Of a stretch of 21,728 nucleotides of DNA, positions 3,618-18,235 are shown piece by piece. The notes beneath the pieces were generated by a model that saw only the letters and a list, made by a program, of their open reading frames with translations, had not been told where the DNA came from and made no database searches. The stretch is from a virus (Duplodnaviria; Heunggongvirae; Uroviricota; Caudoviricetes), in the IMG/VR virus record IMGVR_UViG_2529292909_000013, positions 1 to 21,728 of that record. One strand, given 5' to 3'. Made by a program: the position numbers and the translations under genes. Numbering within the stretch: the first letter of the stretch is position 1; every line of letters starts with the position of its first letter.

Positions 3618-4040
3618 ATGGCAAAAGCATTTACACAAGAAGAGCGGGAAAAAATTAAAGGGCAGGTTGTTGAACTCGTACGCCAGAGTGGGCGCGAGAC
3701 GTTACGACAACTGGAAACTAAAACTGGGGCAACAAGATATCTGATGAGCGTTCTGGCCAGAGAGCTGGTTGCCAGTGGCGATGTATACAACTCTGGTTAC
3801 GGGTTATTCCCGTCTGAACAGGCGCGTAAGGACTGGCAAAATGCCCGTAAAAAGCTCTCAAGGGCAAAGCCGAAGAAACCATCTGCGGTTGATCCGGACC
3901 TTATCTGGTCGTTACCAGACGGCGAAATACGCCGCTACGACAGGCGTCAAAACATAATCTGTCGCGAGTGCTGGAAGAGTGAAGCTATGCAGCGTGTACT
4001 GGCTTTCTATCAGGGGAATTTTCAGAAGGTGCTGTTGTGA
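3618..4040 (+). CDS. Hypothetical protein
   Basis: ATG at 3618 preceded by GGAGG; 140 aa; basic central region; no recognisable family. Confidence 0.45.
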   Translation: MAKAFTQEEREKIKGQVVELVRQSGRETLRQLETKTGATRYLMSVLARELVASGDVYNSGYGLFPSEQARKDWQNARKKLSRAKPKKPSAVDPDLIWSLPDGEIRRYDRRQNIICRECWKSEAMQRVLAFYQGNFQKVLL

Positions 4041-4151
4041 GCCAAATTAACAATCGGAACTTCGTGAAGAGAAAGAGAAAGCATAATCCAAATCTGAATA
4101 ATTAAGTTCAGCACTGTAAATAAAATTTAATCCTTAACTGGAGGTATATCT

Positions 4152-4364
4152 ATGTCAAATACACAGAAAATTATTAACACTGAAAAATATAACGAGTGGG
4201 TGAAAAAATTCTCTGAACAGATTTTTAAAATTACTGGCGACGAGAATGTGGCAAAAAATGAATTAGAACCGTGGACACCTGAAGGAAACGCACCAAATTA
4301 TTGCTGGTGGGAGGTTGATCCGGTTGATGCTGCAAATGAAGCCATGAGTTACCACAACGATTAA
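4152..4364 (+). CDS. Hypothetical small acidic protein (A+T-rich island)
   Basis: 70-aa ORF with GGAGG RBS; A+T-rich compared with flanking DNA. Confidence 0.45.
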   Translation: MSNTQKIINTEKYNEWVKKFSEQIFKITGDENVAKNELEPWTPEGNAPNYCWWEVDPVDAANEAMSYHND

Positions 4365-4396
4365 TGTCGGGAGGCCGCCCGAAAGGGCGGTAAGAA

Positions 4397-4615
4397 ATGA
4401 CTACATTATTCAGAAAAGAATATCCGCAAAAAAGTAGAGCGACAGAATTTTTGTTTCTCATTCTGTTTATCGTATTGATGATACCGATATCCCCTCTAAT
4501 TGTTGTCTGGGCAATCGGGAAAATAATTGAGCCAGTTACTGAATTGTATACCGACGTTGTATGGGCGTCGTTCAACACACTGCACAATAAAATTAATCCG
4601 TATAAGGAAAACTGA
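4397..4615 (+). CDS. Hypothetical small membrane protein
   Basis: 72 aa with a long hydrophobic stretch (FLFLILFIVLMIPISPLIVVWAIG). Preceded by a GC stem with GAAA tetraloop (ggccgcccGAAAgggcgg, about 4371..4389) that has no T-tract. Confidence 0.4.
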   Translation: MTTLFRKEYPQKSRATEFLFLILFIVLMIPISPLIVVWAIGKIIEPVTELYTDVVWASFNTLHNKINPYKEN

Positions 4616-4616
4616 T

Positions 4617-4880
4617 ATGGCAACTTTGACAAAAAAAGAACGGGCATGGTTGAACGAATTACAGGAAGTTCTTGATCGCTGTCCATCACCGAAAAAAATT
4701 GGCTTTTACACCATTGGCGATAAAAGCATTTACCTGTATGACCTACGCCGCATGGATGAAATCATGGAGGCTCTTGATAATCGTTCGTCGATGGATTGGT
4801 GTGTTGCTGTTCATGATATGAATGCAGGGTTTGATGAAAAGATTTTGTTCCCCTCATCAGTTGAAAGCACTGCGGGTTAA
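4617..4880 (+). CDS. Hypothetical protein
   Basis: ATG 4617 two nt after the stop of the preceding ORF; 87 aa. Confidence 0.45.
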   Translation: MATLTKKERAWLNELQEVLDRCPSPKKIGFYTIGDKSIYLYDLRRMDEIMEALDNRSSMDWCVAVHDMNAGFDEKILFPSSVESTAG

Positions 4881-4890
4881 GGAGTAACAC

Positions 4891-5058
4891 ATGACCACTA
4901 TTACCAAAGAACGTATTGAATTGTTCATTAAAAACCCGCTTGAAAACGGGCTTACCCGTGGTGAACAAATGGAACTGGCACGGATTGCGCTGGCATCGCT
5001 GGAAGCAGAGCCGGTTGTGTTCTGGTTTGAAAAATATCAAGAAGGGGCTACGGCATGA
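4891..5058 (+). CDS. Hypothetical small protein (55 aa)
   Basis: AAGGAG RBS before ATG 4891; stop overlaps the next start (ATGA at 5055..5058); shares the motif IAL-SL-AEP with the next ORF. Below the 60-aa cutoff of the supplied track. Confidence 0.35.
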
Positions 5059-6572: not shown

Positions 6573-7628
6573 GTGCGGGTATTACTTCGACCTGTTCTGG
6601 TACCGGAACTCGGGCTGGTGATCGTTAAGCCGGGCCGTGAATCCATGCCGGTATTCCACAATACCCGGGTACTGGTGGAGCCGGAACCGAAAAGCATGCG
6701 TAATCTGCCGTCCGGGGTTGTTCCTGCCGTTCGCCAGCCGCTGGTGGAAGACAAAACATTGCTGCCGTTTTTCAGTAACGCACGGGTGATTCGTGCTGCT
6801 GGTGGTGCTGGCGCATTGTCTGACTGGTTACTGCGCCATGTTAAATCCTGCCAGTGGCCACACGGCGATTATCACCACAGTGAAACCGTCATTCACCGTT
6901 ATGGTACCGGCGCAATGGTGTTGTGCTGGCACTGCGACAACCAGCTGCGCGACCAGACCTCCGAATCACTCGGGCAACTTGCTCACCAAAACCTGTCTGC
7001 ATGGATGATTGACGTCATACGCCATGCAATGAATGGCTCGCAGGAACGGGAATTATCGCTGGCTGAATTATCCTGGTGGGCGGTCCGCAATCAGGTGGCG
7101 GACGTGCTACCGGAAGCGGTATTACGTCGTTCGCTGGGGTTGCGTGCGGAAAAAATCCGCTCAATGTACCGTGAAAGCGACATCGTACCGGGAGAGCAGA
7201 CCGCCACCAGCATACTGAAGCAGCGCACAAAAAATCTTGCGCCGCTGCCTCACGCCCACCAGCAAAACCCGCCACAGGAAAAGACGGTGGTCAGCATTGC
7301 CGTTGATCCGGAGTCACCGGCTCAGTATCTCCAGCGCCAGAAATCACAACGGGAAGAGATGCCTGTATACACGCGTTGGGTAAAAACGCAGAAATGCATG
7401 ACGTGTGGCAATCAGGCAGATGATCCGCATCACATCATTGGTCATGGACTGGGAGGGATGGGAACAAAGGCTGATGATTTGTTTGTTATTCCGCTGTGCC
7501 GTAAATGCCATAGCGAACTACACGCCGGGGTAAAAGATTTTGAAGAAAAACACGGCAGCCAGCTGTTGTTGCTGATTCGTTTTTTAATGCACGCGAGAAA
7601 TTCGGGTGTTCTGAAGTGGAAAGCATAA
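6573..7628 (+). CDS. DUF968-family prophage protein with C-terminal HNH-like zinc-binding motif (YdfU-like)
   Basis: GTG start with GGAGG RBS; 351 aa; C-terminus carries CMTCG...DPHHIIGHGLGGMGTKADD...IPLCRKCHSELH (Cys/His HNH-like pattern). Sits immediately upstream of rusA, as in Qin/DLP12-type prophages. Confidence 0.65.
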   Translation: MRVLLRPVLVPELGLVIVKPGRESMPVFHNTRVLVEPEPKSMRNLPSGVVPAVRQPLVEDKTLLPFFSNARVIRAAGGAGALSDWLLRHVKSCQWPHGDYHHSETVIHRYGTGAMVLCWHCDNQLRDQTSESLGQLAHQNLSAWMIDVIRHAMNGSQERELSLAELSWWAVRNQVADVLPEAVLRRSLGLRAEKIRSMYRESDIVPGEQTATSILKQRTKNLAPLPHAHQQNPPQEKTVVSIAVDPESPAQYLQRQKSQREEMPVYTRWVKTQKCMTCGNQADDPHHIIGHGLGGMGTKADDLFVIPLCRKCHSELHAGVKDFEEKHGSQLLLLIRFLMHARNSGVLKWKA

Positions 7629-7994
7629 ATGACTGAACGCATAGAATTTGTTTTGCCTTACCCGCCAACGGTGAACACTTACTGGCGACGTCGTGGCAGC
7701 ACATATTTTGTATCAAAAGTCGGTGAGCGTTATCGCCGTGATGTGGCGCTTATTGTTCGCCAGCAGCAACTGAAATTAAACCTGTCCGGAAGGCCGGCAA
7801 TAGAAATTATTGCAGAGCCACCGGATAAGCGCCGTCGTGACCTGGACAATATCCTGAAGGCACCACTGGATGCACTGACGCATGCGGGGCTGCTCATAGA
7901 CGACGAGCAGTTTGATGAAATTAATATTGTGCGCGGTCAGCTTGTTCCTGGTGGGCGGTTGGGGATAAAAATCACAGAACTGGAGTACGCATGA
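7629..7994 (+). CDS. rusA: RusA Holliday-junction resolvase
   Basis: 121-aa product with the RusA hallmark pattern (LPYPPTVNTYWRRRG, DKRRRDLDNILKAPLDALTHAGLLIDD, GGRLGIKITE). Confidence 0.85.
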   Translation: MTERIEFVLPYPPTVNTYWRRRGSTYFVSKVGERYRRDVALIVRQQQLKLNLSGRPAIEIIAEPPDKRRRDLDNILKAPLDALTHAGLLIDDEQFDEINIVRGQLVPGGRLGIKITELEYA

Positions 7995-8680
7995 ATAACC
8001 AGTATTTACAGTTTGTTCGTGAGCAGCTCATTATCGCCACCGCCGATTTGAGTGGGGCAACAAAAGGTCAGCTTGAAGCCTGGCAGGAGAATGCCATGTT
8101 TGATACAGGGCGTTACAGACGTAAAAAAATCCGGTACCGCGATAAGGTCACTGGAAAAATGGTAACGCTGGATAATCCACCGATCCCGGGAAAGCAATCG
8201 CTGGCGAAAGGTTCATCAATTGCCCTAGTCAGTCCGGTTGAGTTTTCGACATCATCATGGCGACGCGCCGTTCTGTCTCTTGAAGAGCATCAGAAGGCGT
8301 GGGTACTGTGGGTATACAGTGAAAATCCGAGTTGGGATTATCAGGTGGTCATTGCGAAATGGGCGTGGGATAAGTTTCAGGTGCATTTTGGCACCAGAAA
8401 AATTACAGGGAAAACGCTTGAGCGTCTGAAGAAATTAATCTGGCTGGCGGCGCAGGATGTCAGGGGGAGGATTACTGGGTGTGACGTCTACCAGCGACAG
8501 GAACTTGCCAGACTGTGTGGAGTTAAGTCAGACAACTGGAGCCACAATTATGCGCACTACTGGCGTGATATGTGCGACATTTTTAAGAACCTCGACAACG
8601 AATCTTTGATTTATACCATGAAAACAAGATCGCAACAAAAAGCGACCTTTTCGCGGCGGGTTATTGCAAAAGTCAATTAA
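7991..8680 (+). CDS. Late-gene antiterminator Q-like protein
   Basis: ATGA start/stop overlap with rusA; 229 aa; canonical Q position directly after the nin/rusA genes and before the late region. Family assignment rests on position and size, not on a recognised motif. Confidence 0.5.
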   Translation: MNNQYLQFVREQLIIATADLSGATKGQLEAWQENAMFDTGRYRRKKIRYRDKVTGKMVTLDNPPIPGKQSLAKGSSIALVSPVEFSTSSWRRAVLSLEEHQKAWVLWVYSENPSWDYQVVIAKWAWDKFQVHFGTRKITGKTLERLKKLIWLAAQDVRGRITGCDVYQRQELARLCGVKSDNWSHNYAHYWRDMCDIFKNLDNESLIYTMKTRSQQKATFSRRVIAKVN

Positions 8681-8952
8681 ATCGCGTACATTTCGTGTAA
8701 ATCTGATATTTTGCTGATTTTGTACACGATGGCAAACTAAACAAAGCCTGCTGCTGAGCGGGCTATCTTTTGTCGTAAGTTGAGCGAAAGACCATCGATT
8801 TTACCTTGCTAAAACTATTCTGCTATTGCCGAGTTACCCTTTAGGTAATACACTCATCTTATAAAAGAAAGTGGTTGTTAGCCACATAGGTTAGGATGTG
8901 CGCATACTTTGTTTGTGTGCTTTTTGTGTTTTATCTGTTAACGGAGGGGAGC

Positions 8953-9180
8953 ATGCCGAAATATCTAACACTTGCCGCTCGCGCGATCCTCTCACCTGAG
9001 AAGATCATCAAAAAAATTGCAGATATAGCTTCCATGTGTGATGGAAAAGAAGCTAAGCATGAAAGTGACAAGTTTTTCATTGATAGTAATGGTTCGATGG
9101 TTTTGAATCGCAACAACGCTGATGTGCAAAAGGCTTTCGCAGCCAATATTAAGGGATTGAGTACTAAGAAGAAGGGTTAG
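8953..9180 (+). CDS. Small lysine-rich soluble protein, first gene of an A+T-rich two-gene cassette (unknown family)
   Basis: ATG 8953 with strong GGAGGGG RBS; 75 aa; no hydrophobic segment; region is A+T-rich by eye compared with flanking phage genes. Confidence 0.5.
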   Translation: MPKYLTLAARAILSPEKIIKKIADIASMCDGKEAKHESDKFFIDSNGSMVLNRNNADVQKAFAANIKGLSTKKKG

Positions 9181-9186
9181 TCTTCT

Positions 9187-9984
9187 ATGTGGGCTGCGCT
9201 GATTGTTATTGTTTTAGTTTGTGGTTATCACTATACCAACTGCCATTTGCCGTCACGATACCGTCAAAGCAAAGCGATCGGTTGGAATGCATACTTTGAT
9301 GTTGCACTGAAAGGTGGTGAGTTTCTCATAAGTGGTATTCTTATCGCTGCCTTATTGGTTGTTGTTCTGTACGCTGGAATGTCACTTTGGAACATTCCAG
9401 CGTACTTGTTTGGTTGGTACGCTCCCTTTACTTTCGCCCATGACTTTCTCAAAATGCGAGTGTTTGGGTTGAGCATGTTCCCTGCTATGTCGATAGCTTT
9501 CACTATTATTGTAAGTATCGGGAAGGCATCAGAGGCAACCAAAAACCATAAAGACCCACAAAAGCGCAAGGCTATTTTTGAAGAAATTGCGGCTCATAGT
9601 GCCGTGGAAAATATCCTTCTTGAATCAGTTGAGCGTGGATTGTTATTGTTGGTTACACTGAAGTCTCGCAAGGTCTATGTGGGGATGATTGATGAGGCAC
9701 GTTTCAATCAGTTAGATACTAACACATTGGTGCTAATCCCTTTTATGTCCGGGTACAGAGATAAAGATACTCTGACTTTTTGTGTTGAGCATAATTATGT
9801 GGACTACTACCTTAGTCAGGGTATCACATTAACTTCTGAGCCATTGTCAGTTTATCAGTTTAGGCATGTGTTGCCCTTCGATCAGATCGAATCTTTTTCG
9901 CTGTTTAATGTTGAAACATTCGAGACTTTCAAGGCAGGTATTGAAGGGAAGAAGGCCACTGAAGTACAGAATCAAACAAGTTAA
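9187..9984 (+). CDS. Multi-pass membrane protein with about 150-aa C-terminal soluble domain (unknown family)
   Basis: Starts 6 nt after the upstream stop; 265 aa; hydrophobic segments at roughly residues 2-14, 45-75 and 92-112, then a charged soluble domain; followed by an intrinsic terminator. Confidence 0.55.
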   Translation: MWAALIVIVLVCGYHYTNCHLPSRYRQSKAIGWNAYFDVALKGGEFLISGILIAALLVVVLYAGMSLWNIPAYLFGWYAPFTFAHDFLKMRVFGLSMFPAMSIAFTIIVSIGKASEATKNHKDPQKRKAIFEEIAAHSAVENILLESVERGLLLLVTLKSRKVYVGMIDEARFNQLDTNTLVLIPFMSGYRDKDTLTFCVEHNYVDYYLSQGITLTSEPLSVYQFRHVLPFDQIESFSLFNVETFETFKAGIEGKKATEVQNQTS

Positions 9985-10003
9985 GGTTGTTACCTCATTA
10001 ATT

Positions 10004-10030
10004 AAACCCGCCATTGAGCGGGTTTTTTGA
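10004..10030 (+). terminator. Intrinsic terminator after the two-gene cassette
   Basis: aaacccgc-cattgag-gcgggtttttt hairpin plus T-tract. Confidence 0.6.
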
Positions 10031-10146
10031 TGCCCGAAGTGCGGTACATTAAACGCGCTGGTAGTTATTAATATCGGTCTTTCAGCTTGCTGGCTTTTTC
10101 GACAAGAGTTATTGGTATGTCACGTTAACCAGAAAAGGGAAAAGGC

Positions 10147-10344
10147 ATGCTAAAACAGCAGGATATGACCGAAACTGCCAGAGTGGTGTTTAATGAATTA
10201 AGCGTCACCGAACCGGCGACCGTCGGGGAAATTGCGCAGAATACTTACCTTTCACGCGAACGTTGCCAGTTAATACTGACCCAGCTTGTTATGGCGGGTC
10301 TGGCAGATTATCAGTTCGGTTGTTACAGACGCCTTCCTCAGTGA
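10147..10344 (+). CDS. Hypothetical small winged-helix-like protein
   Basis: 65-aa ORF with AG-rich region before the ATG; HTH-like stretch PATVGEIAQNTYLSRERCQLILTQL. Confidence 0.35.
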   Translation: MLKQQDMTETARVVFNELSVTEPATVGEIAQNTYLSRERCQLILTQLVMAGLADYQFGCYRRLPQ

Positions 10345-10494
10345 AGGCTTTTTTATTTGTGGTAATGGGCGGCTGGTGGGTGTTAGCGGCACCTGCCAGC
10401 CATCTGCTCATGCGTTGGGGTCACAAGCAAACCTCAGGCCCATCTGCTTTGCGCAAAAGCGGTATGAGCCTATCAGAGAAGTGCTTATTGATCT

Positions 10495-11593: not shown

Positions 11594-11669
11594 GGCCCTT
11601 TAGCTCAGTGGTGAGAGCGAGCGACTCATAATCGCCAGGTCGCTGGTTCAAATCCAGCAAGGGCCACCA
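11594..11669 (+). tRNA. ileZ: tRNA with CAT anticodon (Ile2/Met type)
   Basis: Cloverleaf folded by hand: acceptor GGCCCTT/AAGGGCC, anticodon loop cTCATaa, T-loop TTCAAAT, 3' CCA encoded. Symbol follows Stx-phage naming. Confidence 0.75.
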
Positions 11670-11676
11670 TCACATA

Positions 11677-11753
11677 CCGCCATTAGCTCATCAGGAAAGA
11701 GCGCCAGCCTTCGAAGCTGGTTGCGCGGAGTTCGGGTCCCCGAAGGCGGTCCA
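11677..11753 (+). tRNA. argN: tRNA-Arg (TCG anticodon), slightly non-canonical
   Basis: Anticodon stem CCAGC/GCTGG with loop cTTCGaa; T-loop TTCGGGT; one mismatch each in acceptor and T stems; CCA encoded. Confidence 0.55.
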
Positions 11754-11766
11754 TTATCTGTATCCT

Positions 11767-11843
11767 GCGTTGTTAGCTCAGCCGGACAGAGCAATTGCCT
11801 TCTAAGCAATCGGTCACTGGTTCGAATCCAGTACAACGCGCCA
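11767..11843 (+). tRNA. argO: tRNA-Arg (TCT anticodon)
   Basis: Acceptor GCGTTGT/ACAACGC, anticodon loop cTTCTaa, T-loop TTCGAAT, CCA encoded. Confidence 0.8.
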
Positions 11844-12818: not shown

Positions 12819-14195
12819 ATGGCATTTAAACACTATGATGTTGTCAGGGCGGCGTCGCCGTCAGATCTTGCGGAAAAGCTGACACATAAACTGAAAGAGG
12901 GCTGGCAGCCGTTTGGTAGTCCGGTGGCCATAACCCCTTATACCCTGATGCAGGCGATTGCAGCAGAAGGTGATGTGGTCGTCAGTGGTGCAACTGAGCC
13001 GGAGTGGTACTACGTCATCGTACTGGCCGGGCAGTCCAATGCCATGGCTTACGGTGAAGGGCTTCCGCTTCCGGATTCATACGATGCGCCCCATCCGCGC
13101 ATTAAGCAACTGGCCCGTCGTAACACAGTGACTCCCGGTGGTGAAGTATGCGTATTTAACGACATCATTCCTGCTGACCATTGTCTGCATGATGTTCAGG
13201 ATATGAGTACGATTAACCATCCCCGGGCTGACCTGAGCAAAGGGCAGTACGGCTGTGTCGGACAGGGCTTACATATTGCCAAAAAACTGCTTCCGTATAT
13301 CCCTAATAATGCGGGGATCCTGCTGGTACCATGCTGTCGTGGTGGTTCGGCATTCACCCAGGGCGCGGAGGGGACATTCAGTGCGGACACGGGGGCCAGC
13401 CAGGATTCGGCACGCTGGGGTGTGGGTAAACCGTTATATCAGGATCTGCTTTTCCGCACGAAGGCAGCATTGCAGAAAAACCCGAAAAACGTTTTGCTGG
13501 CGATATGCTGGATGCAGGGGGAATTCGATATGACGAATGCCAGTTACGCCCAGCAGCCAGCAGCATTTCTTGCAATGGTACAGCAGTTCCGTGCTGACCT
13601 TGCCGGGCTGGCGGCGCAGTGCCATGGCGGCAGTGCTGCAGTTGTACCGTGGATTTGTGGCGACACGACGTATTACTGGAAAAACACATACGGCACACAG
13701 TATGACTCCGTCTACGGCGCGTACAAAAACAGGGAGAGCGACAACGTTTTCTTTGTGCCGTTCATGACCGACGGTAACGGCAACAACACGCCCACCAACT
13801 TACCGGCAGAAGACCCGGATATTGCTGATGCAGGTTATTACGGCGCGCAATCCCGTAGTAATGGTAATTGGGTATCGTCAAATCGTCCGACACATTTCAG
13901 TTCATGGGCGCGCAGGGGCATTATTTCGGATCGCCTGGCAACCGCTATTCTGAACGCAGTTGGTCGAACCAGCGCCTTCATCAGCGGTACCGCACCGGAG
14001 ATTAAACCCTCGCCCGGCGGCGACACGCCATCGGGGCCGTCTGATGGTGACACATCCGTTCGTACAGTCTCCCTGCTGCCGACAGCCGGAGAGGCTGCTG
14101 CGCAGGGCTGGACCATCACCGGCGGCAGTGTTGCGCTGGAAGATGGTGTGTTTAAGGTTACCGCGTTAACGGAGCGCGGCGTTGTCCCCTCATAG
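12819..14195 (+). CDS. Prophage NanS-p-like esterase (sialate O-acetylesterase family)
   Basis: 458-aa ORF with GGGAGG RBS; resembles the nanS-p/yjhS-like gene found downstream of the tRNA/stx region in Stx-type lambdoid phages; contains the VIVLAGQSNAMAYGE segment and a Gly/Ser/Asp-rich C-terminal tail. Confidence 0.6.
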   Translation: MAFKHYDVVRAASPSDLAEKLTHKLKEGWQPFGSPVAITPYTLMQAIAAEGDVVVSGATEPEWYYVIVLAGQSNAMAYGEGLPLPDSYDAPHPRIKQLARRNTVTPGGEVCVFNDIIPADHCLHDVQDMSTINHPRADLSKGQYGCVGQGLHIAKKLLPYIPNNAGILLVPCCRGGSAFTQGAEGTFSADTGASQDSARWGVGKPLYQDLLFRTKAALQKNPKNVLLAICWMQGEFDMTNASYAQQPAAFLAMVQQFRADLAGLAAQCHGGSAAVVPWICGDTTYYWKNTYGTQYDSVYGAYKNRESDNVFFVPFMTDGNGNNTPTNLPAEDPDIADAGYYGAQSRSNGNWVSSNRPTHFSSWARRGIISDRLATAILNAVGRTSAFISGTAPEIKPSPGGDTPSGPSDGDTSVRTVSLLPTAGEAAAQGWTITGGSVALEDGVFKVTALTERGVVPS

Positions 14196-14658
14196 TCGCC
14201 TGTCCGGTGCGATGGTGGAAGAAGCCGGATGTTTATCACTATTAATTGATGACACAGAAATGGATTCATTGAATTTCAGCACGTTTTTGTATTCGTGTTA
14301 TTGAACATCTGTTTATTTACTTTTAACATATTGATAATAAAAAGAGCTGTAAATCTTTAGATGAGTCGATTTTGTCCGGGGAAGTTCAAATGGATTTTAT
14401 GCTGACGGTTTCTGGTGTGGTTATCCTGTCCATTGCTTATACTGCAGATAAATATGGCTGCCATTTGTTATCACGTATTGGCGCTTATTGTTCGTTGATG
14501 CTGATTTTCTCGTCGCTTTTTTGAGTAAGTTATATTAATTATAACAAATAATTTTCTGTGTTATTTTCAGGCTATCCCGTCAGAGGGGAAGCCTGTACTG
14601 CCAGGGAGCGAATGGAAAACTGATGTGTCCGGTAACTGCGTGTTCTGTGAACACCATG

Positions 14659-14844
14659 TTACTTAATTATGTAATTCATACCCGAACTCTCTGTTGACAG
14701 CCTTCTTCTGCAGGCTTCAATAACCCACGCTGAAAAGTTTCCTGAACCTTTCAGATCAAGAGCGATGTTAATTTGTTCAATCATCTGGTTTGGAAATCGG
14801 ATGTTGCGGGTTGTTGTTCTGCGCGTTCTGTTCTTTGATGACAT
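14659..14844 (-). CDS. Small ribbon-helix-helix-like protein (DUF3950/YlcI-like)
   Basis: 61-aa minus-strand ORF; strand-helix-helix pattern RNIRFPNQMIEQINIALDL...FSAWVIEACRRRL typical of RHH DNA-binding proteins; sits just upstream of cos/Nu1. Confidence 0.45.
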   Translation of the reverse strand: MSSKNRTRRTTTRNIRFPNQMIEQINIALDLKGSGNFSAWVIEACRRRLSTESSGMNYIIK

Positions 14845-15019
14845 AATGTTTCCCCATATTCAGTGTTGCTGATTTGTATTATCAGAAGTTGCTTTTACGT
14901 TAATTTGACGCAGATCAATTAATACGATACCTGCGTCATAATTGATTATTTCTCGTGGTTTGATGGCGTACACACATGTTGTGATAAACCTTATATAGAT
15001 GATAATCATTATCATTTCG

Positions 15020-15230
15020 TGGGTCCTTTCCGGCGATCCGACCGGTTACGGGGCGGCGACCTCGCGGTTTTTCACTATTTATGAAAATTTTTCAGGGAAA
15101 ATCGTGTCGGTACTTCTCGAATATAACTTTTTGTTTTTTTTAATATTGCATCCGTAAAGGTCCGACATGAAAGTGTCCGAAAATGCCTTTTTCTGGCGTT
15201 TTCATGTCGGGCCTTGTATTTGATAATGGG
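15020..15230 (+). other. Lambda-like cos site (cosQ-cosN-cosB)
   Basis: GGGCGGCGACCTCGCGGTTTTTCACTATTTATGAAAATTTT at 15051.. is near-identical to the lambda left end (12-nt cohesive end GGGCGGCGACCT). The preceding GGGTCCTTTCCGGCGATCCGACCGGTTACG matches the lambda right end. Inverted repeats GTCCGACATGAAA / TTTCATGTCGGG (about 15165..15215) look like cosB R-sites. Confidence 0.75.
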
Positions 15231-15238
15231 TTGTTTTC

Positions 15239-15787
15239 ATGAAGGTTAATAAAAAGAGGCTTGCCGAAATTTTCAACGTGGACCCGCGGACGATTGAACG
15301 CTGGCAGTCTCAGGGACTCCCTTGCGCCTCCAAAGGTAGTAAGGGCATTGAATCTGTATTTGATACTGCCATGGTAATTCAGTGGTATGCGCAGAGGGAA
15401 ACTGATATCGAAAACGAAAAGCTCCGCAAAGAACTGGACGATTTGCGTGCGGCAGCGGAGTCAGATTTACAACCCGGCACCATTGACTATGAACGCTACC
15501 GGCTCACAAAAGCGCAGGCAGATGCGCAGGAACTGAAAAATGCCCGTGAAGACGGAGTAGTGCTGGAAACTGAACTGTTTACCTTCATTCTGCAACGTGT
15601 GGCACAGGAGATTTCGGGGATACTTGTGCGTGTGCCGTTGACATTACAGCGTAAATATCCGGACATTTCACCATCACACCTTGATGTGGTGAAAACTGAA
15701 ATCGCGAAAGCCTCCAATGTTTCAGCTAAGGCCGGTGAAAACGTGGGCGGGTGGATCGATGATTTCAGACGCGCAGAAGGCAGCTAA
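15239..15787 (+). CDS. Terminase small subunit Nu1
   Basis: 182-aa product closely similar to lambda Nu1 ([62 protein letters not shown]). Confidence 0.9.
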
Positions 15788-16967
15788 TGCAGCCGGTGCG
15801 ATAGCAACAGGGCTTTTATCTCTCATTATTCCTGTTCCACTGACGACAGTTCAGTGGGCCAATAAACATTATTACCTTCCTAAAGAGTCGTCTTATACCC
15901 CGGGGCGGTGGGAAACACTGCCGTTTCAGGTTGGCATCATGAACTGTATGGGCAACGATTTGATTCGCACTGTTAACCTGATTAAATCTGCCCGTGTTGG
16001 TTATACAAAGATGTTGCTGGGAGTGGAGGCTTATTTTATTGAGCATAAATCACGCAACAGCCTTCTTTTTCAGCCCACGGACTCAGCTGCTGAAGATTTT
16101 ATGAAATCTCATGTTGAGCCAACGATAAGGGAGGTTCCTGCGTTGCTGGAGCTGGCTCCATGGTTCGGAAGAAAACACCGCGATAATACGCTCACCCTGA
16201 AGCGTTTTTCCTCCGGTGTGGGTTTCTGGTGTCTGGGGGGAGCGGCAGCAAAAAACTACCGTGAAAAATCCGTGGATGTGGTCTGTTATGACGAGCTTTC
16301 CTCGTTCGAACCGGATGTTGAAAAAGAGGGTTCGCCAACCCTGCTGGGGGATAAACGTATTGAGGGCTCTGTATGGCCCAAATCCATTCGCGGCTCGACG
16401 CCTAAAATCAAAGGCTCCTGCCAGATCGAAAAAGCCGCTAACGAGTCGGCACACTTCATGCGTTTTTATGTGCCCTGTCCGCACTGTGGGGAGGAGCAGT
16501 ATCTGAAATTTGGCGATGAGTCCACGCCTTTTGGGCTTAAATGGGAGAAGGACAGCCCCGAAAGCGTTTTCTACCTCTGTGAGCATCATGGCTGCGTGAT
16601 CCATCAGTCTGAACTGGACCAGAGTAACGGGCGGTGGATCTGTGAAAACACGGGCATGTGGACCCGTGACGGTCTGACGTTTTTCAGCGCTGCGGGTAAT
16701 GAAATTCCGCCGCCGCGCTCCATCACTTTCCATATCTGGACGGCGTACAGTCCGTTCACCACCTGGGTACAGATTGTCTATGACTGGCTGGATGCACTGA
16801 AAGATCCCAACGGCCTGAAAACCTTTGTGAACACCACGCTGGGCGAGACCTGGGAAGAGGCTGTGGGCGAAAAACTCGATCACCAGGTACTGATGGATAA
16901 GGTTGTGCGTTACACGGCGGCGGTGCCTGCCCGGGTGCCCTCGTGGACTCGTCGCCTGACGCACTGA
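15759..16967 (+). pseudogene. Terminase large subunit (gpA) N-terminal fragment, truncated after about 400 codons
   Basis: From ATG 15759 the product tracks lambda gpA (ANKHYYLPKESSY..GRWETLPFQ, CPHCGEEQYLKFGD, TTLGETWEEAVGEK) up to about ...YTAAVPARV, then diverges and stops at 16967; lambda gpA is about 641 aa. Confidence 0.85.
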
Positions 16968-18235
16968 ATACGCTGAACGAGCTGGCTGCGGCGTTGGGCA
17001 ACGACCCGAATTTTGCGACCACCATGACTAACGCGCTTGCGGGTAAGCAACCGAAAGATGCCACCCTGACGGCGCTGGCCGGGCTTGCTACTGCGGCAGA
17101 CAAGTTTCCGTATTTTACGGGGAATGATGTTGCCAGTCTGGCAACCCTGACAAAAGTTGGGCGGGATATTCTTGCGAAATCGACCGTTGCCGCCGTTATC
17201 GAATACCTCGGTTTACAGGAAACGGTAAACAAGGCTGGTAACGCCGTTCAGCGTTCCGGCGATAAAATGACCGGAGAACTGAAAATTGGCACGGTGAATG
17301 CGCTGCGAATTTTCAATGATGCCTTCGGTCTTATTTTCCGTCGTTCAGAAGATTTTCTTCATTTCATTCCGACGGCTGAAGGACAAGGCGAAAACGGTGA
17401 TATCGGCCCATTAAGGCCATTCGCTATAAATCTGAGAACAGGTGCTATATCTGTCAGCCACGGGGCCAAAATTGATGGTGGGCTGGCGCTTGGTACAGAT
17501 AACGCACTGGGCGGTAATTCCATTACTCTCGGAGATAACGACACTGGTATTAAACAGGGCGGCGACGGTGTCCTTTTATTCTATTCAAATGGACAACTGG
17601 CATTTGGGCTTCAACCCGCATCTGCTGATTTTTATAAGCGGGTTGCATATATTCATCAGGGAATAATTCCTGATGGAAGTGGCGCATTTGCAGACCAGTT
17701 GAATAATGCCACCGCGCCTTTTGTTCAGACGCAGTTTGCCTGGAATCCCACTCCTGGTGGTCATTACGTGCCGATAGTTAAGGGCTTGTCCATTCGCAAT
17801 GGACAGGGCTATCCCGGCGCGGTCAGCTTTGGGTATTTACTGACAGAACAGTATGGATTTCCGGTTCCATGTATTCATATGCGTGGCGATGGCGGTAATG
17901 ATGCTTTATGGCAGTTTAACCCGAACCATAAATCCTTTATTTCACCGGGTGCTCTTATTGCGGGTGGCGTCCGTTATAACACCGATGGAAATATATTTGG
18001 TGGGTGCTGGGGGTCAAACTTAAATGATTACCTGAATAGTTCTTTTATCAGAAATGTGCGTCTGGGAGGCAGACGTTCTGACACATTATATCGCGGAGGA
18101 CTTTGCGAACCAGGTAATGGTCATGTGACAACAGGATTGCAAATTATTGGTGAGGTTGATGGAGATGACTGGATGGTGTCACGACCACTACAAAAATACA
18201 TTTCTGGTAACTGGTATAACGTTGAACAGGCATAG
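16943..18235 (+). CDS. stf: Side tail fibre protein, 3' portion (constant-region end plus variable segment Sv); 5' part missing
   Basis: Contains the conserved DALNTLNELAAALGNDPNFATTMTNALAGKQPKDATLTALAGL...AAVIEYLGL block of lambdoid Stf proteins and a C-terminal receptor-binding-like domain. No upstream shaft/N-terminal region; begins at the junction with truncated gpA. Confidence 0.75.
   Translation: MDSSPDALNTLNELAAALGNDPNFATTMTNALAGKQPKDATLTALAGLATAADKFPYFTGNDVASLATLTKVGRDILAKSTVAAVIEYLGLQETVNKAGNAVQRSGDKMTGELKIGTVNALRIFNDAFGLIFRRSEDFLHFIPTAEGQGENGDIGPLRPFAINLRTGAISVSHGAKIDGGLALGTDNALGGNSITLGDNDTGIKQGGDGVLLFYSNGQLAFGLQPASADFYKRVAYIHQGIIPDGSGAFADQLNNATAPFVQTQFAWNPTPGGHYVPIVKGLSIRNGQGYPGAVSFGYLLTEQYGFPVPCIHMRGDGGNDALWQFNPNHKSFISPGALIAGGVRYNTDGNIFGGCWGSNLNDYLNSSFIRNVRLGGRRSDTLYRGGLCEPGNGHVTTGLQIIGEVDGDDWMVSRPLQKYISGNWYNVEQA
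17196..17221 (+). other. Left crossover site (ix/gix-like) for Pin/Gin-family DNA invertase
   Basis: TTATCGAATACCTCGGTTTACAGGAA is 22/26 identical to the reverse complement of the site at 20275..20300 and resembles Mu gix. Lies in the EYLGL codons at the constant/variable junction of stf. Confidence 0.65.

Follow-up and report, generated by a model that had tools for sequence, protein, structure and literature searches.

We found that positions 8774-10030 of a 21,728-nucleotide (nt) stretch of viral DNA (IMG/VR record IMGVR_UViG_2529292909_000013, hereafter the window), which comes from an Escherichia coli lambdoid prophage, form a horizontally mobile, self-contained two-gene accessory cassette, or moron. 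This cassette lies between the unit made of the antiterminator gene Q with its tR'-like terminator and a prophage backbone that resumes with a 65-amino-acid (aa) gene and a DNA methyltransferase, and we regard this conclusion as firmly established. The two genes encode a small basic protein and a membrane protein whose C-terminal half is predicted to be Sm-like. The most likely role, to which we give an even chance, is to shield the lysogen from other phages at the cytoplasmic membrane, through exclusion or abortive infection (Abi). The argument is positional, because the pair has repeatedly and independently come to occupy phage cargo sites of three kinds, including a defence hotspot validated by experiment.

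The limits of the insert were set by comparison with related prophages. Upstream of the cassette lie DUF968 and RusA genes and a Q gene of the PF06323 type (7991..8680, + strand; Pfam Phage_antiter_Q, E = 1.5e-83), which belongs to the context and stands outside the insert; downstream come a 65-aa winged-helix-like gene, an N6/N4 DNA methyltransferase, three tRNAs and a sialate-esterase-like gene. Where the Q is related (84-91% identity) but the cargo differs, prophages are homologous to the window up to position 8714 or 8773 and then diverge, and on the right side homology with the prophages of ~2,166 E. coli genomes restarts at 10002-10046. Therefore, the insert proper can be placed at about 8774..10030, with its right junction in or just after the cassette terminator (~10002-10046). 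The initial annotation of this DNA, made from the sequence alone, had the A+T-rich island begin at 8684. A foreign island does occupy the post-Q slot, but 8684-8773 is shared with the related-Q prophages of other cargo and belongs to the Q/late promoter/terminator unit; this region downstream of Q (8681..8773, + strand) contains a tR'-like hairpin at 8745-8764 that folds at -14.2 kcal/mol, with an adjoining T-tract. Likewise, the island had been placed between Q and the methyltransferase, and it does follow Q, but the 65-aa gene (10147..10344), part of the common prophage backbone, separates it from the methyltransferase. The product of this gene matches phrog_331 at 1.4e-37 and, weakly, TrmB/MarR, and a terminator-like hairpin is found at the end of the gene (window 10147-10348).

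The cassette shows the presence/absence polymorphism, the distinct base composition and the terminator of its own that are expected from a moron. Among 5,426 complete E. coli genomes, only 14 carry its DNA, invariably in the same slot and annotated each time as two hypothetical proteins, while in prophages without it Q is joined directly to the 65-aa gene; a search of phage records with the cassette DNA gave no match. The base composition is foreign, and the anticipated A+T-richness was borne out when G+C content was computed: 0.412 for 8774-10030, against 0.513 for the DUF968-RusA-Q flank and 0.520 for the flank of the 65-aa gene and methyltransferase. Across the 21.7-kb sequence, only 1.4% of the segments of this size are as A+T-rich, and the G+C content at third codon positions is 0.43 against 0.50-0.59. 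The intrinsic terminator that ends the cassette (10004..10030, + strand), recognized from the start, folds at -15.9 kcal/mol with a z-score (z) of -5.3 against shuffles and has a T-run directly 3'. Its stem resembles the terminator behind Q in prophages without the cassette, and the stem is also found, with an identical ATTGA loop, behind the Serratia copy of the cassette.

In other prophages the same slot holds different cargo. E. coli E24377A carries there a Ser/Thr kinase and a PP2C phosphatase (L105:3376-4880), the kinase matching the PADLOC models PD-T4-6 (1e-34) and Stk2 (5e-28), and APEC E14033 carries a DUF5677 protein that matches no PADLOC model (L104:3365-4225). The post-Q slot is a cargo-exchange hotspot, and it hosts at least one exclusion-type gene.

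Both open reading frames (ORFs) are present as first described, tightly linked on the + strand, the small gene at 8953..9180 (75 aa) and the large gene at 9187..9984 (265 aa), and so is the ribosome-binding site (RBS) GGAGGGG, at 8943-8949 and 3 nt ahead of the ATG at 8953. An alternative in-frame ATG at 8896 would give a small protein of 94 aa. We take the start at 8953 to be the right one because the homologues of other genera begin at the equivalent position (MTRLFTL.., MPKLIRKL..) and because GGAGGGG precedes it. The stop of the small gene and the ATG of the large gene are 6 nt apart in the same reading frame (window 9178-9189). The same junction, a stop and exactly two codons in-frame, is found in the E. 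coli, Serratia, Yersinia and Proteus copies (equivalent junctions: L004, L007, L010 at 7992-8003), and in P2-like copies the stop of the small gene overlaps the start of the large one. This spacing or overlap suggests that the translation of the two genes is coupled. Between the Q unit and the small gene, the A+T-rich non-coding leader (8774..8952, + strand; G+C 0.397) holds the RBS and, just 5' of it, a weak hairpin and T-run (8900-8920, within window 8900-8930; GCGCATACTTTGTTTGTGTGC TTTTTGTG; -8.7 kcal/mol, z = -2.2), which could serve for attenuation or, after tR', as another terminator ahead of the cassette.

The window allele of the cassette is 97.3% identical to that of E. coli strain 41, and the leader is 95% identical. 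Between these two alleles we counted 4 synonymous and 1 non-synonymous changes in the small gene and 14 and 4, respectively, in the large gene, corresponding to ratios of non-synonymous to synonymous substitution rates (dN/dS) of ~0.06 and ~0.08, values that come from one pair of E. coli alleles with few substitutions. Both genes are real and under purifying selection.

The small protein had been described as soluble and lysine-rich, in agreement with its 12 lysines, its isoelectric point of 9.7 and its lack of a transmembrane segment. Its predicted structure begins with two helices, which a linker connects to a conserved beta-hairpin and a last helix, with the core DKFFIDSNGSMVLNRNNADVQKAFAANIKGL. 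When modelled alone with AlphaFold2, it reached a predicted local distance difference test score (pLDDT) of 68 overall, with ~85 for the hairpin (41-51) and the helix (56-71) and low values for the rest. A small same-strand ORF lies just 5' of the large gene in 97 of the 98 loci examined; it is usually 59-90 aa long and usually ends no more than ~20 nt before the start of the large gene. A hidden Markov model (HMM) search identified it as significantly homologous to the window protein in 70 of these loci, with the shared core [DN]xxGxhxLNxxNxxVxxAhxxxIxxL (h, hydrophobic); the other 28 loci are the most distant ones, and the majority of their small ORFs display an analogous hairpin-plus-helix pattern, for instance NGYTIVDVNALLRDPKVKATIE or VVGRGTVKIDPEEV. 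Based on this recurrence, homology and likeness of pattern, the two genes are best described as an ancient, obligate pair. The small protein had no match in Pfam, PADLOC or NCBIfam, nor in phages by tblastn. Furthermore, ten diverse small partners had no convincing match to any Pfam family, and none at E <= 5 to an antitoxin or DNA-binding family (ribbon-helix-helix (RHH), AbrB/MazE, helix-turn-helix), which leaves an assignment to AbrB/MazE-like or RHH antitoxins unsupported.

The large protein contains three hydrophobic segments (~1-19, 39-72 and 92-112) and a soluble C-terminal half, as expected from its earlier description as a multi-pass membrane protein with a C-terminal soluble domain of ~150 aa. 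Basic residues follow helix 1 and helix 3, and by the positive-inside rule the N-terminus is probably outside and the C-terminal half cytoplasmic. For one homologue, Phobius predicted two transmembrane helices, which makes the first helix less certain. An AlphaFold2 model built with 41 homologues was confident (mean pLDDT 89.4, predicted template modelling score 0.73); after the hydrophobic helices and a helical linker, the modelled C-terminal half comprises a helix, a bent small barrel (~139-240) and a final helix, that is, the N-terminal helix and five-stranded bent barrel of the Sm/LSm/Hfq fold. In Foldseek searches of the PDB the model matched Sm/LSm entries with a probability of about 1.0, and in BFVD it matched mainly uncharacterised phage proteins and one Hfq-like entry. 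According to the model, the C-terminal domain is Sm-like, at the level of the fold only. The most conserved positions of the family all map to this domain (L158-K-S-R-K-V-Y-x-G166, P185, S188-G-Y-R191, D194, Y204 and Y208), and the cluster of basic loop residues among them appears compatible with the binding of an anionic ligand.

MscS likewise combines three transmembrane helices with an Sm-like domain. A channel of this type was ruled out for the large protein: there was no MS_channel profile match in Pfam, and MscS was absent from the structural matches.

The large protein belongs to a very broad family. An exhaustive HMM search recovered 2,647 representative clusters (50% identity) at E <= 1e-3, of which 1,482 at E <= 1e-10, and the proteins are mostly 240-290 aa long among the best 150 of the 2,647 clusters. 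A profile of the C-terminal domain only retrieved 790 proteins. The 120 of them that were listed are mostly 250-275 aa long, with a few shorter or partial ones; their source names are all variants of "hypothetical" or "uncharacterised", and they bear no Pfam domain and no fused extra domain. There are also entries of ~100-150 aa with a stand-alone C-terminal Sm-like domain (phrog_23864, P0140, P0205, P0219 and P0237), which may be fragments of short contigs or genuine soluble versions. At the species level, genome matches were found in Enterobacterales, Vibrio, Shewanella, Aeromonas, Psychrobacter and Pseudomonas, and also in several Beta- and Alphaproteobacteria, Legionella, Acidobacteria (Bryobacterales) and Balneolaceae. 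The large protein had no match in Pfam, NCBIfam or PADLOC, and in PHROGs it matched only families of unknown function (phrog_3630 among them). The impression that neither product resembles a known phage family has thus been sustained, and the remote-homology search led to the Sm/LSm fold and to no known holin, spanin or lysis protein.

The distribution of the pair among phages carries the functional argument. After Q, it occurs in three lineages, namely E. coli (PF06323-type Q), Serratia (after NinG and a 222-aa protein) and Atlantibacter (PF03589-type Q); since the lineages differ, these occurrences look like independent insertions at an analogous slot. Within tail-gene clusters, a Proteus siphovirus has it between the genes for the tail assembly chaperones and the one for the tape measure, Yersinia, Proteus and Morganella myoviruses carry it in the surroundings of their tape-measure and baseplate genes, in another myovirus it separates the baseplate genes from those of the tail fibres, and in an Enterobacter lambda-like prophage it lies between gpK and gpI/J. 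Finally, at least 10 independent P2-like elements carry the pair in the P2 hotspot, between the replication gene gpA and the portal gene: two GenBank phage lineages (Salmonella SEN4/SEN5 and Klebsiella ST15-OXA48phi14.1), seven species-level genomes (Erwinia, Pantoea, Dryocola, Citrobacter, Photorhabdus, Edwardsiella and Symbiopectobacterium) and an E. coli prophage. This site is the locus of P2 old and tin. The gpA-portal locus has been shown experimentally to be a reservoir of anti-phage systems (Rousset et al. 2022, PMC9122126). Moreover, a 2026 study of P2 and P4 picked eight loci of unknown function at random from the P4 hotspot, found that six of them protected against phage, and predicted 15-32% of the P2 proteins of unknown function to be antiviral (PMC13586616).

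Copies of the same genus in unrelated phages (Proteus siphovirus and myovirus; two Serratia contexts) share several hundred bases of leader together with the preceding terminator, which indicates that the unit moves with its own flanks, and terminators also follow the Proteus and Klebsiella-phage copies. The pair is also found on plasmids and in chromosomal islets amid housekeeping genes. No conserved third gene was found, the nearest neighbours varying by locus (TIR, AAA_13, ParDE, major facilitator superfamily transporters and others). In the P2 hotspot the neighbour is a bSEFIR/TIR gene (6.9e-103 to the PADLOC model) or an AAA_13 gene; PD-Lambda-2 adjoins one locus in the set of close Enterobacterales neighbours, and the toxin-antitoxin genes ParDE, RelE and MqsA adjoin some loci. 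Apart from such cases, few neighbours could be recognised as defence genes. In Klebsiella phi14.1 a strong terminator (6891-6912) lies between the pair and the bSEFIR/TIR gene. This terminator sits inside the annotated 69-aa gp15 of ST15-OXA48phi14.1 (L003:6853-7062); hence gp15 may have been called in error, and the TIR gene may stand as a unit of its own. In Serratia, a ParD/ParE-like pair directly follows the cassette and precedes the methyltransferase (L004:9054-9588), so that the slot there holds two accessory units.

The window prophage itself looks defective (window 12819-18235). Its esterase-like ORF has 458 aa against 617 aa in relatives (L100) and is followed by an A+T-rich, ORF-poor stretch (14200-15200). 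The terminase large subunit is cut short at 416 aa, where its nuclease domain has barely begun, and continues into an ORF of 430 aa that belongs to no family and then into tail-fibre assembly genes. No holin, endolysin or other lysis gene was seen in this prophage. An intact and constrained cassette in a defective prophage is compatible with a benefit to the host, though it is no proof of one.

Considering all the above results, the defence or exclusion module that the initial annotation had suggested gains from the recurrence of the pair in the P2 hotspot, in post-Q slots and at tail sites and from the kinase found in the same slot, and it loses from the lack of PADLOC matches and from the many ordinary chromosomal neighbourhoods. 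The neighbourhood survey gave the same divided answer, since phage cargo hotspots do recur, but many members stand amid ordinary chromosomal genes. Our confidence is held down because the proteins have neither homology to a described system nor a phenotype, because the family has these ordinary chromosomal members, because no promoter was found in the leader and because the P2 hotspot also carries cargo unrelated to defence.

Several results in particular weigh against an anti-phage role or against the proposed fold. Neither protein matches the models of PADLOC v2.0.0 at E <= 1, Abi and superinfection-exclusion entries included, and neither do the SEN5 and Klebsiella-phage homologues; in the literature searched, a phenotype is reported for neither protein. 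At the sequence level, the large protein has no Pfam match at E <= 0.1, LSM and Hfq included, a profile search of the PDB sequences with its family (hmmsearch) returned 0 matches, and the alignment of the domain with Hfq (hhalign) reached a probability of 0.3%. Many members, especially those of Photorhabdus, Xenorhabdus, Pantoea and the distant phyla, are surrounded by housekeeping or transporter genes, and few of their neighbours can be recognised as defence genes. The P2 hotspot carries partition systems and toxins as well (PMC9122126). Finally, the leader has no sigma-70-like promoter and two terminator-like hairpins stand ahead of the genes, so that expression in the window prophage may depend on Q-mediated late transcription and not on the lysogenic state. 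The consensus scan of 8774-8952 on the + strand, which gave no sigma-70 match, is weak evidence either way; no conserved upstream promoter was found among the other copies, the leaders of distant copies being unalignable and the consensus scans giving no convincing site.

If the pair does protect against phages, a mechanism can be proposed by analogy with the behaviour of Sm folds and of defence effectors that join transmembrane helices to a barrel. The large protein is predicted to be an inner-membrane protein with three transmembrane helices and a cytoplasmic Sm/LSm/Hfq-like small barrel. Just beneath the membrane, six or seven of its Sm-like domains would come together as a ring, thereby gathering 18-21 transmembrane helices. 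Through the invariant basic loop residues K159, R161, K162, R191 and K193, and/or through the small partner, the ring would sense an infection cue, for which nucleic acid, a nucleotide or a phage protein are candidates. The transmembrane bundle would then block genome entry, or open and collapse the membrane potential, whereas the small protein would hold the complex inactive until the cue arrives or might be the sensor itself. Duncan-Lowey et al. in 2021 reportedly described transmembrane effectors with a cytoplasmic ligand-binding barrel, such as Cap15 of the cyclic-oligonucleotide-based anti-phage signalling system (CBASS), which oligomerise and disrupt the membrane. In its boldest form, our proposal is that the pair represents a new and widespread class of immune module (~2,600 clusters, from Enterobacterales to Acidobacteria), unrelated to described defence systems, in which a membrane-anchored Sm/Hfq-like ring gated by a partner of 60-90 aa senses infection-derived nucleic acid or nucleotide at the inner membrane and responds by opening a pore or blocking genome entry. 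We put this forward tentatively, as a possible but rather improbable whole.

The alternative that survives best is a toxin-antitoxin-like addiction or stabilisation module, in which a membrane toxin and a small upstream antitoxin or regulator would spread selfishly without a dedicated anti-phage role. A small upstream gene, a larger downstream gene and coupled translation are the classic layout of such modules; the spread of the pair over prophages, plasmids (L039, L057) and chromosomal islets is patchy, its ParDE, RelE and MqsA neighbours are those expected where toxin-antitoxin pairs collect, and the cassette has been kept intact in a decayed prophage. However, the Pfam search reported above (E <= 5) gave no antitoxin or DNA-binding family for the small protein, and the large protein matches no toxin family. 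The membrane toxins of type I and type V systems are, to our knowledge, much smaller and lack a conserved cytoplasmic domain of 130 aa, which also counts against this explanation. We therefore consider it unlikely, while noting that it would overlap with abortive infection if a phage triggered the decay of the antitoxin.

Next in order of probability, and also doubtful, is a module for lysogenic conversion or host physiology, for example a membrane-tethered Hfq-like binder of RNA or nucleotides that alters the envelope, stress tolerance or host association. Such a role would suit a family of 2,647 clusters across Proteobacteria, Acidobacteria and Balneolaceae whose members often adjoin metabolic or transport genes, and Sm/Hfq folds are best known as RNA chaperones. 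Among the homologues retrieved, those of insect- and animal-associated Morganellaceae and Yersiniaceae are well represented. On the other hand, a host function would not predict the repeated independent insertion at phage cargo hotspots dominated by anti-phage genes, nor the sporadic, strain-specific presence (14 of the 5,426 E. coli genomes), which is unlike that of a core function.

A function in the phage life cycle, expressed late from pR', such as a lysis-timing regulator (holin- or antiholin-like) or a membrane factor for phage DNA transactions, would fit a membrane protein product encoded directly 3' of Q and tR' and 5' of the position of the lysis genes in related phages, with no autonomous promoter detected, but it is contradicted by the non-phage and non-lysis contexts of the pair (P2 hotspots, tail clusters and non-phage chromosomal sites, far from lysis genes, and plasmids), by its absence from most relatives of the window prophage, by the lack of holin, spanin or lysis matches for the pair in Pfam and PHROGs and by the terminators that bracket the cassette as an independent unit, and we regard it as very improbable.

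Elsewhere in the window, the three tRNA genes 3' of the methyltransferase (11594-11843) have a CAT anticodon (called Met), Arg-TCG and Arg-TCT, and the equivalent cluster in the relatives L013 and L014 is annotated Ile/Arg/Arg. A second A+T-rich stretch is found in the early region (3800-5050, G+C 0.39-0.43). It contains an ORF of 152 aa on the - strand (4231-4689) that has no Pfam match; its equivalent in L001 holds two hypothetical minus-strand genes and IS1. This stretch may be another cargo insertion.

If the protection of the lysogen against other phages proves true, a new and very widespread two-gene system would be added to the bacterial immune repertoire, and the post-Q slot of E. coli lambdoid prophages, of the type that carries stx, would be seen to exchange exclusion cargo with P2 hotspots and tail-module sites. 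Even without a defence role, our analysis defines the conserved operon of a large uncharacterised family, with a confidently predicted fold and invariant residues. The small size of the cassette (1.26 kb) makes the hypothesis directly testable.

Several known systems can be compared with the cassette. The large protein differs from Sm/LSm/Hfq proteins by its three fused transmembrane helices and by extra insertions, and in the literature searched no link to immunity was found for the combination of transmembrane helices with an Sm/Hfq-like barrel. Like the transmembrane effectors of CBASS (Cap15) and Pycsar, it joins N-terminal transmembrane helices to a small soluble beta-barrel with the potential to bind a ligand and to bring about oligomerisation and membrane disruption; unlike them, the cassette includes no cyclase or other signal-generating gene, its barrel is Sm-like and not of the Cap15 type, its partner has 60-90 aa, and it has no PADLOC match. 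Lambda RexAB, the AC1 2TM+1TM+TIR system and Kiwa resemble it as prophage-borne modules of few genes with a membrane component, located in cargo hotspots, but the cassette matches no PADLOC model of RexAB or Kiwa, and its own genes include neither a TIR nor a RexA-like or DUF4868 partner. The large protein was also considered as the "2TM" or "1TM" component of AC1 (Rst_2TM_1TM_TIR), and this was ruled out, as BLASTP gave no significant alignment and the window has no TIR gene.

HK97 gp15 is a single small membrane protein that confers superinfection exclusion. The cassette shares with it the position class within tail-gene clusters (in Proteus and other hosts) and the inner-membrane location, but consists of two genes, has a large conserved cytoplasmic domain and shows no PHROG or Pfam link. 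The 933W-type Stk or PD-T4-6 cargo of E24377A occupies the identical position, with the same type of Q/tR' before it and the 65-aa gene and methyltransferase after it; its proteins, a kinase and a PP2C phosphatase, are unrelated to those of the cassette, and it shows only that the slot hosts exclusion genes. The new systems named in the 2026 P2/P4 study differ from the cassette in domain content (PMC13586616).

The closest relative in a published catalogue is System 43. The claim that the cassette is undescribed was nearly right: searches of the literature by accession, motif and keyword, DefensePredictor supplements included, gave no characterisation or phenotype beyond this entry, and in the supplements of Rousset et al. 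2022 the family motif occurs in one entry, System 43 of Table S5B. There it is listed without Pfam annotation, as one protein noted "2 TM" with 93 occurrences in the E. coli P2 hotspot, and the table of the systems that were cloned and tested does not include it (PMC9122126). This entry adds a position and no function. System 43 belongs to another phage type and slot, and it was catalogued without a partner gene or domain. Nevertheless, it is a member of the same family, with 37% identity to the window protein over 252 aa (E = 5e-66) and the LKSRKVY and SGYRDKDTL motifs in common, and the same small upstream partner accompanies it in the E. coli P2-like locus L114. Should the cassette protect against phages, this unannotated entry of the P2 hotspot catalogue would acquire a function as well.

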